Assembly (NCBI GenBank): GCA_001794055.1
Contig: MGJB01000006.1
Location: 90,168-154,167 of the forward strand
Source: Candidatus Yanofskybacteria bacterium RIFCSPHIGHO2_01_FULL_41_26
Lineage (GTDB): Bacteria > Patescibacteriota > Minisyncoccia > 2-02-FULL-40-12 > GWA2-44-9
Length of the DNA: 64,000 bases
Direction of reading: 5' to 3'
In this document: one piece after another, positions 1-15,385 of the stretch
Numbering within the stretch: the first letter of the stretch is position 1
Layout: every line of letters begins with the position of its first letter
Position numbers and translations under genes: made by a program
The notes under the pieces: model-generated
What the model was told of the DNA's origin: nothing
What the model saw: the letters and a program-made list of their open reading frames with translations, nothing else
The model's database searches: none

Positions 1-552
1 AATGGCTACCCGGAAGAAACAAATGCGCCTTACGGCTTGGCGAAAAAGATGCTTCTGGTCCAGTCACAGGCCTACCGTCAGCAATATGATTTCAACTCCA
101 TTTATCTTTTACCAGTAAATCTTTACGGCCCAGGGGATAACTTCAATCCTAAAAGTTCTCACGTCATTCCCGCTCTTATCAAAAAAGTTGCTGACGCGCA
201 AAAAGCCGGAAAAGGACACATAGATGTATGGGGTACCGGCAAGGCATCGCGAGAATTCCTCTATGTGGCCGACTGTGCCGAAGGGATAGTTCTGGCAACG
301 GAAAAATACGATAAACCCGACCCGGTTAACCTTGGCGCAAATCGGGAAATTAAAATAAAAGACCTGGTAAAAACAATCTGCAAGCTTATGGACTTTAAAG
401 GCGATATCCGATGGGACAAAACAAAACCCGACGGTCAGCCGAGAAGGATGGTCGATACCACTCTTGCCAAAAAAGAATTCGGATTCAAAGCAACAACATC
501 TTTAGAAGATGGCCTTGAAAAAACCATCCGATGGCACAAGACACATGCGTAA
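1..552 (+). CDS. fcl: GDP-L-fucose synthase (GDP-4-keto-6-deoxy-D-mannose 3,5-epimerase/4-reductase), 5'-partial
   Basis: Frame 1 is open from nt 1 ([18 protein letters not shown]...). C-terminal half of the NAD-dependent epimerase fold with the Fcl-typical NLYGPGDNF...HVIPALIKK...[18 protein letters not shown] motifs. Confidence 0.85.
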
Positions 553-1297
553 CCTCAAAAAAATTTACAGAAAATTTTTAAGAAATAGATTAATTTTGGC
601 ATTTATTGATATCAAGCCGCAGAATCTGCCTCGCATAATGCCATTTGTCAGGCAGTATAAAAAATATAAAAGCATAAGCACCGAGCAAATTAGCGTTGCT
701 CCGATTTTAGGGGATGATACAACCACAACAAACATTGACCCGCATTATTTTTACCAAGCCATTTGGACCGCAAAACACATAGCCCAAACACATCCACCCG
801 AACATGTAGACATCGGATCACAAGCGCAATTTGTAGCTTCTTTAACCGTATTGACAAAAGTTAAATTTGTTGACATTCGCCCGCTTGATGTGAAGCTGGA
901 AAATTTAACCAACACAAAAGGATCCATTTTAGACTTACCATTTTCTGACAATTCGATTGATTCTCTTTCCTGCCTGCATGTTGCCGAACATATCGGCTTG
1001 GGAAGATACGGCGATAAGTTAGACCCGGAAGGGACAAAAAAGGCCTGTCAAGAATTGACTAGGGTACTCGCCAAAGATGGGAATTTATATTTTTCTCTGC
1101 CTATAGGCAGAGAGAGAACTGAATTTAACGCCCACAGAATTCATCAACCACAGACAATAATTGATTATTTTTCCGGTCTTACGCTCATAGAATTTTCGGC
1201 CATAAACGATCGCGGGCATCTGGTGTTAAATGCGCGACCATTGGATTTTAAAAACAGCCAATATGGCTGCGGCTTATTCCATTTTAAACGAACCTAA
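545..1297 (+). CDS. SAM-dependent methyltransferase-like protein
   Basis: The ORF track starts at 509, overlapping fcl. An internal ATG at 545 (ATGCGTAA overlap) or at 638 is more likely. The [29 protein letters not shown] segment resembles a class I methyltransferase (Methyltransf_11/23-like) fold. Confidence 0.5.
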
Positions 1298-13139: not shown

Positions 13140-15385
13140 AAATCTCTACCGAGACTCTTTACAAACACTCTGGCATCAGCCTCAAAAGACGGGTCAACCT
13201 GAACCGCTTTATGAGCCATTTTTACAGCATCATCAATTCTTCCCAAATTAGCGTATGCGGTTGCCAGTGATGCATAATGCTGGGGGTTATTTGGATTAAC
13301 TTGAATCAACATTTCGTAGACCCAAGCAATATGGACAAAATCTTTGGTCTTGATATAAGCATTTACCAATCTTGCAAAATCCTCTTCGCGGGGACTATAC
13401 GGGTTTTTGCTCAATAGGGCCCTTTTTAAATCCTCTGCCCCGCTTAAGTCCCCGTTTTCTATTTTAGCCGCTCCTAAGTATGCATGGGATATGCCAGTAT
13501 CCGGATTTAAATCGACTGCTTTTTGGAAAAATTCAATGGCTTTAGTATAATCTTTTTTATTAAGATATGCTTGGGCTATTTCATAATAAGTTCTGATAAA
13601 CGTCGGCGAAAGTTCCAATGCTTTCATTGAATAGGCCAAAGCACTGTCATTATATGGTGACCCTGGATCTTCTTTACCAAACATGATATTCAATCGAGAA
13701 CCATAGAGATATGGCAGATTATCAATCGAGTTTTCTTTAATGTTTTTATCAACTTCTGTTATCGCATATTTATAAGCATCTTGGACTATTTTTTCTTTAA
13801 TACTCGGACCGCCTCCGCCGACCAGATATTGGGCAAATCTGTGTCTGTATTCATACTTGCCAGGCACATCATAAGACAAAGCTTCTTTATATTTTTCTAA
13901 AGCTCCATTAAAGTCGCTTGCCCACCCTCTTACAATAGCTCTTGTAAGTGTGTAGTTGGCCCTGGAAGGCAAAAAATTGGTTTTATATATCAACACTAGG
14001 ACAGAAACGACTAAAACAATGGTTAAAATGCCGATAAGAAATCTGTTTTTGATAACCGGGAAAGACATTTTTGTTTCTTCCTTTCGTTCACGCCCAAAAT
14101 AGGATACATATCCGGCAAGCGTAAAGAAAACAACAAAATTAGCCGAGGTGTCAAATATGAAAGAGTTGTGGATCATATATGCAACGACCGCTGAAGTAAG
14201 TCCTACACCGTAAACGACAAATTCGTTGTTCTTCATTAGTCTTCGAAGATGGGCGAACAAAGAAACAAAAATATTAACATAGGCCAAAAACCCCACAAGA
14301 CCCATCGTCACCAAAATCTCGATGAACATATTGTGGGCCCTGTCAAAAAGAGTCTCCGAGCCGATTCCCACAAAAAACTTCGGATTAAAATATTTCGAAA
14401 AAGGAATATTAAAATTCTCCGGCCCCCAGCCAAGAAGAATTGTTTTTGGATTTTCACTCCATCCTTTCAGCCCCGCCTGCCAGGCCCAAAAACGCGTCTG
14501 AACAGTAACTGAAGTAAGTGATAAATTGGTTATTCTGCTCAAATACCCGGAGTTTTTTACAAAAGAAGAGTTGTTAAACAATCCGACAAAAATAACGAAT
14601 AAGACAACAAGACCAACTAGAGAGCCGAACACCAACCTTCCGGTATGTGACTTTTTGCGCTCCATCCACAAGAACGCAAAAACCATAAGCCCGACCGCAT
14701 AACCTAAAATTGAACCTCTAACCGCAGTCATCAGAACAACAACAGAAGTTATTACAAAGGCTAGCAAATACAGAGTTCTTCGATTTTGAGTATTCCTGGG
14801 ATTTAAATACATTATCAAAGACAAGAACACGGATAGTAATTCATAGCCGGCAAATAAAGCTGCATTGCCGATGGTGCCGAATATCCTCGCACGTCCTCCT
14901 GATCCAAGGAAAAATTCAATATTTGTTTTCTGGGCAAATCCATAAAACGCCGATAAGACACCAATAAAAATAGTCAGGTCAAGCAATCTTTGCCAATGTT
15001 CTTTTTTTGTAAATACCGAAGTTAAAATTATAAAGAATAAAAAGTAATGCCAAAAAGTCCAAAGACCGCCCATTCTTTCAAGAGTGCCCCAAAAACTTGG
15101 ATATTTCAAAACACTGGTCAAGGTAGCCAAAGTAAACGCTAAAGCAAAAAACAATAAAGCCCAAAATATTCTATCTCGGCGAGGTAGAAAAAAACGGTTT
15201 TTAAAAACCAATACCAAATAAGCCACTCCTAAAACTTCAATTAAACTCCTAAAAATTATAACCTTCCCAAAATGAAAAGGGGAAATGAAATCCTTCCAAA
15301 TAATGAGCGGCACTAACGCCGTCAAATAAATTCCGAACCGGATAAATTTAACTAGACCCGATTCTCGTGATAATTGTTGTTGCAT
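13136..15385 (-). CDS. O-antigen ligase/polymerase-like polytopic membrane protein with C-terminal TPR repeats
   Basis: About 10 predicted TM helices in the N-terminal 450 aa. C-terminal TPR-like repeats (AYLNKKDYTKAIEFFQKAVDLNP; AYANLGRIDDAVKMAHKAVQVDP). Confidence 0.55.
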   Translation of the reverse strand: MQQQLSRESGLVKFIRFGIYLTALVPLIIWKDFISPFHFGKVIIFRSLIEVLGVAYLVLVFKNRFFLPRRDRIFWALLFFALAFTLATLTSVLKYPSFWGTLERMGGLWTFWHYFLFFIILTSVFTKKEHWQRLLDLTIFIGVLSAFYGFAQKTNIEFFLGSGGRARIFGTIGNAALFAGYELLSVFLSLIMYLNPRNTQNRRTLYLLAFVITSVVVLMTAVRGSILGYAVGLMVFAFLWMERKKSHTGRLVFGSLVGLVVLFVIFVGLFNNSSFVKNSGYLSRITNLSLTSVTVQTRFWAWQAGLKGWSENPKTILLGWGPENFNIPFSKYFNPKFFVGIGSETLFDRAHNMFIEILVTMGLVGFLAYVNIFVSLFAHLRRLMKNNEFVVYGVGLTSAVVAYMIHNSFIFDTSANFVVFFTLAGYVSYFGRERKEETKMSFPVIKNRFLIGILTIVLVVSVLVLIYKTNFLPSRANYTLTRAIVRGWASDFNGALEKYKEALSYDVPGKYEYRHRFAQYLVGGGGPSIKEKIVQDAYKYAITEVDKNIKENSIDNLPYLYGSRLNIMFGKEDPGSPYNDSALAYSMKALELSPTFIRTYYEIAQAYLNKKDYTKAIEFFQKAVDLNPDTGISHAYLGAAKIENGDLSGAEDLKRALLSKNPYSPREEDFARLVNAYIKTKDFVHIAWVYEMLIQVNPNNPQHYASLATAYANLGRIDDAVKMAHKAVQVDPSFEADARVFVKSLGRDF

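Follow-up and report, generated by a model that had tools for sequence, protein, structure and literature searches.

Loci for the glycosylation of surface layer (S-layer) proteins (slg loci) contain genes for glycosyltransferases (GTs), a methyltransferase, a TagF-like enzyme and the synthesis of sugar nucleotides, and the gene of the target protein is sometimes adjacent (PMC2943079). WsfB, the predicted S-layer O-oligosaccharyltransferase (O-OTase) of Paenibacillus alvei, combines a Wzy_C domain with C-terminal tetratricopeptide repeats (TPR) (PMC2943079). A further point of comparison is the O-glycan cluster of Tannerella forsythia, which is 27 kb long and serves to build a long, non-repeating decasaccharide whose core is conserved and whose outer part varies with the species (PMC6120980); its sugars include a nonulosonic acid and a dideoxyhexose in addition to fucose and O-methyl sugars (PMC6120980, PMC4030854). 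Here, we describe a related type of locus in a 64,000-nt stretch of the genome of an uncultured bacterium, Candidatus Yanofskybacteria. This stretch is referred to as the window, and all positions are numbered over its whole length. Its first part, from position 1 to position 15385, neither of which is an end of the locus, encodes a set of GTs followed by a 749-residue membrane protein composed of a Wzy_C domain and TPR (Wzy_C-TPR; 13136 to 15385, minus strand). We assign a probability of roughly one half to the proposal that this TPR-bearing enzyme, predicted to have a WaaL fold, attaches a preassembled glycan en bloc to proteins of the cell surface, in the manner of S-layer O-glycosylation.

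Like the slg loci of P. alvei and Geobacillus stearothermophilus (WsfB/WsaB), the Yanofskybacteria locus belongs to a monoderm host and combines a ligase-like Wzy_C and TPR enzyme with clustered GTs, a methyltransferase, a TagF-like glycerophosphotransferase (459 residues, encoded in the upstream flank L001) and sugar-nucleotide genes; tight gene overlaps and a GC content below that of the surroundings are also shared (PMC2943079). The likeness of Wzy_C-TPR to WsfB is one of described architecture. In contrast, slg loci encode both a dedicated primer (WsaP/WsfP) and a means of export, either an ABC transporter or Wzx; neither occurs in the locus type described here (0/21 loci), and the Yanofskybacteria locus adds four or five GT-C enzymes, three of them with TPR, and a DPM1-like GT2 enzyme. 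The T. forsythia cluster and the Yanofskybacteria system share a large number of GTs, methyltransferases and a layout of core and variable genes, and gene sets for all four kinds of sugar are present in or just upstream of the Yanofskybacteria locus. T. forsythia differs in being a Gram-negative member of the Bacteroidota with a polycistronic cluster; in Yanofskybacteria, core and variable GTs lie in one locus that also encodes a candidate transferase. Every component belongs to a known superfamily, and what is new is the combination, together with a subfamily of Wzy_C-TPR proteins encoded at loci devoid of a primer gene. A search of the literature on O-antigen ligases, oligosaccharyltransferases or glycosylated S-layers in the Candidate Phyla Radiation (CPR; Patescibacteria) found no study of such a locus. 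The genome is public, and the genes of the locus carry automatic names only, such as "O-antigen ligase family protein" for Wzy_C-TPR.

A candidate en bloc glycan transferase

The Wzy_C domain (residues 208 to 370) scored 71.3 bits against a gathering cutoff of 31.7 (Pfam PF04932). An AlphaFold 2 (AF2) model of Wzy_C-TPR based on 35 homologues (predicted local distance difference test [pLDDT], 84.4; predicted template modeling score [pTM], 0.82) matched the O-antigen ligase WaaL (7tpg_B) in a Foldseek search (E = 3.2e-5; template modeling score TMt, 0.59; 454 columns). WaaL was the sole membrane protein among the 50 best hits in the PDB, which also included TPR proteins such as OGT. The model comprises, in order, 12 transmembrane (TM) helices with a large loop (residues 271 to 352), a linker rich in lysine and arginine (residues 431 to 447), a thirteenth TM helix (TM13) and a TPR domain of about 280 residues. 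Lysine and arginine numbered 23 on the inferred cytoplasmic loops versus 7 on the short external loops. Based on this order of segments and this distribution of charges, the TPR domain is predicted to be located outside the cell, on the same side of the membrane as the catalytic loop.

Residues R223, R298 and H351 were invariant in 76/76 relatives, with spacings of 75 and 53 residues. From this spacing, we infer that they are equivalent to the catalytic Arg/Arg/His residues of Escherichia coli WaaL (R215/R288/H338) and Neisseria PglL (R224/R298/H349) (PMC3643930). Wzy_C-TPR thus resembles the superfamily of WaaL and PglL-PilO in its Wzy_C score, its modeled WaaL-like fold of 12 TM helices and the spacing of these residues; it differs by the presence of TM13 and of the external TPR domain. 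A CPR cell, moreover, offers no lipid A-core as an acceptor. More than 100 full-length homologues displayed 54 to 77% identity to Wzy_C-TPR, and every match with a named taxon was from Patescibacteria. Wzy_C-TPR is a candidate for the transfer of glycans en bloc.

Conserved core of a primer-less locus type

A scan of species-representative genomes revealed 194 relatives of Wzy_C-TPR, and the best 80 of these, all from Patescibacteria, were analyzed. They fell into subfamily A, which includes the window (24 sequences, 21 of them from the scan; 59 to 76% identity, with a mean of 68% and a minimum of 59%), and the remaining 59 loci, referred to as group B (mean identity, 50%). Subfamily A genes had as neighbors a GSDH-like gene, core GT4 and GT2 genes in the series GT4-GT4-GT2-GT4-GT4 and GT-C genes, several of which encode TPR, with a Bac_transf primer in 0/21 loci and Wzx in 0/21 loci (366 kb examined). 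In contrast, group B genes were located next to primer, Wzx and variable sugar genes, with a Bac_transf primer in 48/59 loci (24/26 of the loci of 20 kb or more) and Wzx in 36/59; the Polysacc_synt Wzx gene usually stopped about 30 nt before the start of the Wzy_C-TPR gene. The GT-C enzymes co-occurred with subfamily A only, and not with these wider relatives. The invariant residues of the catalytic loop were all common to both groups, and two genomes had both a subfamily A and a group B locus (L015/L033 and L027/L071).

The eight GT4 genes of the window are designated GT4a to GT4h according to their position. The conserved core includes GT4d (6608 to 7660), GT4e (7657 to 8799) and GT4f (8801 to 9964), all on the minus strand with Pfam scores of 89 to 151 bits, followed by the GT2 gene, by GT4g (10697 to 11896, minus strand; 163 bits) and by GT4h (11877 to 13139, plus strand; 127 bits). 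Five neighborhoods (the window and loci L005, L006, L009 and L011; 61 to 73% identity) shared one or more genes for giant secreted proteins, genes for small anchored proteins, GT-C genes with TPR (two or three), the GSDH-like gene, the Wzy_C-TPR gene, a divergent GT4 gene and then the series GT4-GT2-GT4-GT4-GT4. Orthologues of GT4d to GT4f (53 to 85% identity) occurred in the same order in these four loci and in most subfamily A loci, the arrangement of GT4g and GT4h (46 to 76%) was kept in all full-length subfamily A loci, and in nearly every subfamily A locus the GT2 gene lay between GT4g and GT4f. One Yanofskybacteria genome apparently contains two full subfamily A loci (L005, with A3J47_02780, and L009, with A3J47_01340), each with a gene for a giant protein of about 1,200 residues that separates the Wzy_C-TPR gene from the GT4 block. 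Locus L011 (GCA_030647955.1) has a diversity-generating retroelement pair (bAvd and RVT_1; 19013 to 20415) within the GT4 cluster.

The first-pass annotation of the window had stated that it contains no Wzx, no ABC exporter and no priming transferase. Pfam searches and tblastn searches seeded with CPR-specific Bac_transf and Wzx sequences against the window and all flanks led to the same result: no Wzx, ABC exporter or phosphoglycosyl transferase was found in the window or in its flanks (20 kb upstream and 10 kb downstream). The window is part of the Joint Genome Institute (JGI) contig C687J35174_10000203, which has the same sequence as MGKG01000028.1 (262,580 bp). Pfam scans of unannotated open reading frames (ORFs) at positions 37048 to 37614, 43414 to 43980 and 18039 to 18452 and of the upstream ORFs revealed no hidden primer or flippase, and no GtrA-type flippase was found at the locus. 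The lack of primer and flippase genes is conserved across the locus type and is not an accident of the window. The location of group B relatives beside Bac_transf and Wzx points to an undecaprenyl-diphosphate-linked donor, and the Wzy_C-TPR family appears to be ancestrally tied to undecaprenyl-diphosphate and Wzx chemistry. The divide between a primer-less subfamily and its primer- and Wzx-linked relatives is a comparative observation that can be tested.

Enzymes related to lipid-monophosphate sugar donors

The GT2 enzyme (9961 to 10728, minus strand, with a likely true start at 10710; Pfam E = 9e-33) matched DPMS (5mlz; 2e-18), ArnC (9e-17) and GtrB (3e-11) in the PDB, with other GT2 enzymes at 2e-7 or worse. 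In NCBIfam, it matched AglJ (3e-27) and ArnC (8e-23), all matches being under the equivalog cutoffs. It carries the motif DADLEYNP, which conforms to the pattern DADL(x)(x)(x)P. No TM helix was predicted, and the C terminus is a hydrophobic tail (WKDGLAAIWHIIRFNLFIK). Short soluble polyprenyl-phosphate glycosyltransferases exist, human DPM1 being one example. On sequence grounds, the GT2 enzyme appears to be a soluble or peripheral member of the polyprenyl-phosphate-sugar synthase type (DPM1/GtrB/ArnC/AglJ group), and the locus therefore does encode one enzyme for which undecaprenyl phosphate is a probable substrate. This assignment refines the first-pass annotation, which had listed a GT2 enzyme and no undecaprenyl-phosphate priming transferase.

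GT-C enzymes, which need lipid-monophosphate sugar donors, are encoded downstream from Wzy_C-TPR on the same strand. They include a PMT_2 enzyme (19632 to 21233; 54 bits) and three polytopic proteins with C-terminal TPR, namely, TPRm1 (21258 to 23072), TPRm2 (23069 to 24928) and TPRm3 (24921 to 26948). TPRm1 and TPRm2 are paralogues (9e-27), and TPRm1 is weakly related to PMT_2 (BLAST, 7e-5), with a sub-threshold match to TMTC_DUF1736 (24.7 bits). The membrane part of TPRm3 has no Pfam model; residues D36 and E45, located after TM1, are near-invariant. Its AF2 model (pLDDT, 89.6) matched DPY19, STT3, AglB, PglB and ArnT (E = 7e-6 to 1e-3) as well as ALG12 in Foldseek searches. TPRm3 probably represents an undescribed GT-C family with a modeled fold closest to DPY19 and STT3/AglB; these best matches glycosylate proteins, although likeness of fold alone leaves the acceptor unfixed. 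TPRm3 had 1,868 matches, and the named homologues were from Yanofskybacteria, Parcubacteria or Paceibacterota.

This gene set is reminiscent of three-component extracytoplasmic glycosylation, which relies on a GT2 enzyme of the GtrB/CsbB/DPM1 kind, a flippase and a GT-C enzyme (PMT, YfhO, ArnT or TMTC). The kinship of GT2 and the co-location of PMT_2, YfhO-like and other GT-C enzymes are shared features, and the TPR-bearing GT-C enzymes recall the eukaryotic TMTC protein O-mannosyltransferases. The Yanofskybacteria system differs in that GT2 lacks the C-terminal TM helices of GtrB and ArnC, no GtrA-type flippase accompanies it, and TPRm3 has its nearest folds in DPY19 and STT3.

Secreted proteins encoded next to the transferase

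The genes downstream from position 15385 and as far as 37075 keep the minus strand orientation of Wzy_C-TPR. In addition to the GT-C enzymes, they encode a membrane-anchored GSDH/TrAA12-like beta-propeller (15425 to 16723; GSDH, 38.6 bits; N-terminal TM helix), an SH3_3 protein (16799 to 18091), a 137-residue protein (18039 to 18452) and a 367-residue Ser/Thr-rich protein (18465 to 19568), the last three with a single N-terminal TM or signal segment. Two conserved anchored proteins (215 and 392 residues) and two giant secreted proteins are encoded between 26875 and 37075. The giant proteins, one of 1,250 residues (28831 to 32583) with an N-terminal signal or anchor and one of 1,304 residues with LTD and beta-propeller domains, are acidic, contain 19 to 21% Ser plus Thr and have 2 Cys each. 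Orthologues of the anchored and giant proteins (52 to 76% identity) occur in the same neighborhood of L006, L011, L012, L016 and L017, and those of the SH3_3, 137-residue and 367-residue proteins (46 to 65%) in L005 and L009. The giant secreted proteins are candidate targets of glycosylation.

The SH3_3 protein (residues 219 to 363) and the 1,250-residue protein (residues 46 to 188) have in common a segment of about 145 residues with 64% identity, possibly a recognition or glycosylation module. Orthologues of the GSDH-like propeller (60 to 73% identity) are encoded beside Wzy_C-TPR in 17/21 subfamily A loci; we know of no role of such a propeller in the transfer of glycans.

Host and significance for the CPR envelope

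A protein with 100% identity to Wzy_C-TPR is encoded by Candidatus Yanofskybacteria bacterium RIFCSPLOWO2_01_FULL (MGKG01000028.1, GCA_001794675.1), and the gene content of the window (DUF5671, type IV pilins, H+-PPase) fits a CPR genome. The host is an uncultured monoderm CPR groundwater bacterium of the Parcubacteria lineage. Parcubacteria have been reported to lack genes for lipid A and lipopolysaccharide (LPS), including lpxC and kdsA, and the structure and formation of the cell envelope are still unclear for all CPR bacteria studied (PMC5220378). The premise of the first-pass annotation, a genome without an outer membrane, is thereby borne out. How CPR bacteria build their surface is largely obscure, and these ultra-small episymbionts rely on surface contacts with their hosts. 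The locus offers a concrete and conserved candidate machinery for the decoration of CPR surface proteins, comprising a transferase of the WaaL fold whose TPR domain is predicted to be external, a fixed set of core GT4 and GT2 enzymes, several TPR-bearing GT-C enzymes and, as likely targets, the adjacent giant secreted proteins. The practical payoff is modest, the organism being uncultured, the enzyme families being all known in principle, and both product and acceptor being putative.

Proposed pathway and alternatives

In the pathway that we propose, sugars would be activated in the cytoplasm, giving GDP-fucose through Gmd and Fcl and, from the upstream genes, a CDP-dideoxyhexose-like sugar and a nonulosonic acid. 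On the inner face of the membrane, GT4h, GT4g, GT4f, GT4e and GT4d would assemble the core oligosaccharide on a polyprenyl carrier. GT4a to GT4c, the CgeB-like GT, the GT11-like enzyme and the methyltransferase would extend it by an outer part that is variable, fucosylated and probably capped with O-methyl groups. A flippase encoded elsewhere would flip the glycan, and Wzy_C-TPR would move it en bloc, most likely to Ser, Thr or Tyr residues of secreted proteins recognized by the external TPR domain, the neighboring giant S-layer-like proteins being the obvious candidate acceptors. In parallel, GT2 would make a polyprenyl-phosphate monosaccharide for the four or five GT-C enzymes, three of them with an external TPR domain, which would add sugars outside the membrane. 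The observations behind it are the gene identities, folds, conservation and synteny and the lack of a nearby primer or flippase; the nature of the carrier lipid and of the acceptor, the order of the steps and fucose as the sugar are part of the proposal.

A protein acceptor is favored because the TPR domain is predicted to be external, because WsfB has the same combination of Wzy_C and C-terminal TPR within a locus of similar make-up, because the enzyme is highly conserved while the genes that build the donor vary, and because the locus consistently holds giant, acidic, Ser/Thr-rich and Cys-poor secreted proteins. The external TPR domain, the WsfB-like architecture, the TPR-bearing GT-C enzymes and the giant proteins fit, if indirectly, the preference for a protein- or lipid-linked product expressed in the first-pass annotation. 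An identity of 59 to 76% over 24 loci with changing distal GTs would fit a fixed acceptor and a relaxed donor specificity rather than a repeat-unit polymerase, and the presence of at least 11 nonredundant GTs suggests that they make one long oligosaccharide.

Several observations weigh against this proposal. Searches for sequence similarity to solved WaaL or PglL structures with the full protein, the TM domain and a profile of 10 TM domain sequences returned TPR hits or nothing, so that the equivalence of the catalytic residues rests on their spacing. PglL_A (PF15864) was not matched at an E value of ≤0.01. PilO also lacks the PglL_A motif (PMC3643930), and the absence of PF15864 therefore excludes membership in the PglL family and not O-OTase activity. 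Primer and flippase genes are absent from about 94 kb of the contig and from the surroundings of the 21 related loci, so that the carrier lipid is putative, and the acceptors are likewise candidates. Finally, the position of the gene in the wider relatives, directly downstream from Wzx and near a primer, is the classical wzx-wzy order of a polymerase locus, and TPR domains are found in the scaffolds of polysaccharide export (NCBIfam matches of the BcsC, PgaA and PelB types) as well as in protein recognition.

The last two points would be accounted for by a Wzx/Wzy-type wall or capsule-like polysaccharide, in which Wzy_C-TPR would polymerize a repeat unit carried by undecaprenyl diphosphate, the TPR domain would serve as an external scaffold for the chain, and the polymer would afterwards be attached to peptidoglycan or released. 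The Wzy_C domain is common to polymerases and ligases, and there is a weak NCBIfam match to the repeat-unit polymerase family TIGR04370 (E = 2e-4). We nevertheless regard a polysaccharide as unlikely: polymerases track the structure of the repeat unit, and the conservation of Wzy_C-TPR across loci with differing distal GTs would be unusual for such an enzyme; a repeat unit made by 11 or more distinct GTs would be unusually large; in the neighborhoods examined, neither a chain-length regulator nor an LCP-type ligase was seen; and the best structural match is to a ligase, WaaL. The constant absence of a phosphoglycosyl transferase from the locus type (in the 366 kb examined around the 21 loci and in about 94 kb around the window) would instead be explained by a primer-independent pathway, in which GT2 would prime polyprenyl monophosphate, the GT4 enzymes would extend the glycan, as in the assembly of haloarchaeal N-glycans or of eukaryotic lipid-linked oligosaccharides, the GT-C enzymes would finish it outside, and the WaaL-fold enzyme would transfer it, once flipped, to the giant proteins. 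The fixed position of the GT2 gene between GT4g and GT4f fits such a scheme, as does its best NCBIfam match, AglJ, the first, dolichyl-phosphate hexose-adding enzyme of N-glycosylation in Haloferax. If true, a bacterial Wzy_C enzyme would use a monophosphate-linked donor, in a lineage with a nearly uncharted envelope. This hybrid is improbable in our judgment, since the NCBIfam matches of GT2 are all far under the equivalog cutoffs, the donors that WaaL- and PglL-type enzymes are known to use are diphosphate linked, relatives adjoining a Bac_transf primer have the same catalytic residues, and GT2 is more simply explained as the donor synthase of the co-located GT-C enzymes.

A membrane-anchored lipoglycan of the lipomannan (LM) and lipoarabinomannan (LAM) kind would also dispense with a nearby primer: the GT4 enzymes would start on a glycerolipid, the product would be flipped, the GT-C enzymes would extend it, and Wzy_C-TPR would be accessory or unrelated. 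Actinobacterial synthesis of phosphatidylinositol mannosides, LM and LAM combines GT4, DPM1-like GT2 and several GT-C enzymes according to the same logic, and weak matches of the GT4 enzymes to glycolipid synthases (Mgs, IagA/BgsA) were detected. However, dozens of other GT4 families were matched at least as well, such a scheme would leave the Wzy_C-TPR gene, the most conserved one of the locus, unexplained, and the TPR of three GT-C enzymes suggest that the acceptors are macromolecules, probably proteins. These points make a lipoglycan very improbable. The public annotation of Wzy_C-TPR and a superficially O-antigen-like gene content would suggest an ordinary diderm locus for LPS O-antigen or capsule, with a WaaL enzyme acting as the lipid A-core ligase. 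This possibility is effectively refuted: the assignment of the host to the CPR excludes a classical O-antigen, no Lpt, Lpx, OPX or ABC export genes were found in about 94 kb of the contig, and a WaaL with a 280-residue external TPR domain is unlike the enterobacterial type. The view of the first-pass annotation that the product is not a classical O-antigen is thus upheld, and the complete LPS or capsule export pathway that would have contradicted it is not adjacent to the locus (20 kb upstream and 10 kb downstream).

Genes for probable fucose and methyl transfer as a variable outer module

The window begins within fcl, the 3' part of which (184 codons; 1 to 552, plus strand) encodes the C-terminal portion of a probable GDP-l-fucose synthase; the 5' end of the gene is located 380 nt ahead of the window. 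For the full-length protein of 310 residues, GDPFucSynFcl was the best NCBIfam match, with 276.6 bits (177 for the fragment) and a cutoff of 500. The gene is preceded, just upstream of the window, by gmd (507 bits versus an equivalog cutoff of 415). A methyltransferase of the DUF268 type, probably acting on the hydroxyl groups of sugars, follows (509 to 1297, plus strand; DUF268, 46.8 bits; Methyltransf_11, 28.1 bits). GT4a (1274 to 2464), GT4b (2461 to 3624) and GT4c (3621 to 4667), chained by 4-nt overlaps on the minus strand, scored 73 to 119 bits for Glycos_transf_1. The next two genes encode a GT11-like fucosyltransferase of 272 residues (4758 to 5576, plus strand) and a CgeB-like GT-B enzyme (5583 to 6584, minus strand; Glyco_trans_1_2 [PF13524], 117.7 bits; DUF3880, sub-threshold). 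The Glyco_transf_11 score of the former was marginal (25.8 bits versus a cutoff of 23.9) and came from one short stretch; the protein contains the motifs GRFGNQLFQYA (residues 11 to 21), HIRRGD (residues 156 to 161) and STFSW, and its matches in the PDB, POFUT1 and FUT8, were all sub-threshold. These motifs are also common to GT23 and GT65 and appear to leave the type of linkage unfixed.

GT11, the CgeB-like gene, GT4a and the methyltransferase were absent from the surroundings of the subfamily A genes of 21 species representatives; together with gmd and fcl, they were also absent from L006. A homologue of the methyltransferase was found near just 1/80 related loci. L006 contains orthologues of GT4b and GT4c (52 and 43% identity) and none of GT4a, and GT4a to GT4c form the outer, less conserved part of the locus. 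Thus, the fucose and methyl module (GT11, CgeB-like, GT4a and methyltransferase) supplements the conserved core with an outer part that is specific to the strain, and it is not the essence of the locus. Fucose would be a sugar of the glycan, and the fucosylated surface glycan, linked to protein or lipid, that had been put forward earlier fits the evidence, if indirectly, with the reservation that its fucosylation would be a strain-specific trait.

Extent and organization of the locus

ORF listing and Pfam analysis of positions 1 to 15385 identified eight GT4 enzymes, one GT2, one CgeB-like and one weak GT11-type enzyme. The E values of the GT4 enzymes for Glycos_transf_1 ranged from 1e-20 to 1e-48. 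The genes are located at the positions given above, with Pfam support far beyond chance, in agreement with the inventory of the first-pass annotation, including the methyltransferase and the ligase-like TPR protein. The identification of fcl also held, with the qualification that only the 184 C-terminal codons lie inside the window. Other features of that description required revision. The locus is not confined to about 15 kb and extends about 20 kb further upstream and 12 to 22 kb further downstream; the region forms the middle of a super-locus for the glycosylation of the cell envelope that measures 47 kb or more. Overlaps of 4 nt, said to predominate, occur at just 5/13 junctions. The strand order is +,-,+,-,+,-, with six strand changes counted, which implies at least six transcription units and rules out the one or two operons that had been proposed.

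The eight GT4 paralogues are <34% identical in pairwise comparisons, which implies distinct specificities and rules out a recent duplication of their genes. NCBIfam scans, which included the five core GT4 enzymes, gave generic GT4 matches only, far under the equivalog cutoffs. GT4g and GT4h are divergent, and their 5' ends overlap or are at most 28 bp apart (11848 to 11896; 22 to 156 bp in relatives), so that both promoters must be located within coding sequence.

Upstream, the genes nearest to the window encode a CDP-glucose-4,6-dehydratase-like protein, an RfbH-like protein (357 bits) and a 795-residue YfhO-like membrane protein, in addition to the TagF-like glycerophosphotransferase, another GT4, Gmd and Fcl. 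Farther upstream, there is a nonulosonic acid module (L094, positions 1 to 10000; NeuB, CMP-sugar synthase, SDR, HAD phosphatases, SIS and radical SAM proteins) with a 229-residue GT2. The same kinds of nonulosonic acid genes also flank a primer-linked Wzy_C-TPR paralogue in another genome (L010). Downstream, an IS200/Y1-type transposase gene (37802 to 38536) is located between the giant-protein genes and a gene for an RmlA-like glucose-1-phosphate thymidylyltransferase (38591 to 39316).

Beyond these genes, a GC-rich island (46690 to 48000; GC content of 0.50 to 0.675 versus a background of about 0.38) adjoins a tRNA-Trp gene (46604 to 46680, minus strand). It contains an ORF of 106 residues (46856 to 47176, minus strand) that is preceded by AGGAGG and followed by strong hairpins. 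The folding z-score of the island was -7.65 on the minus strand, and Rfam gave no match besides the tRNA. The island looks like either a foreign insertion at a tRNA gene or an undescribed structured element.

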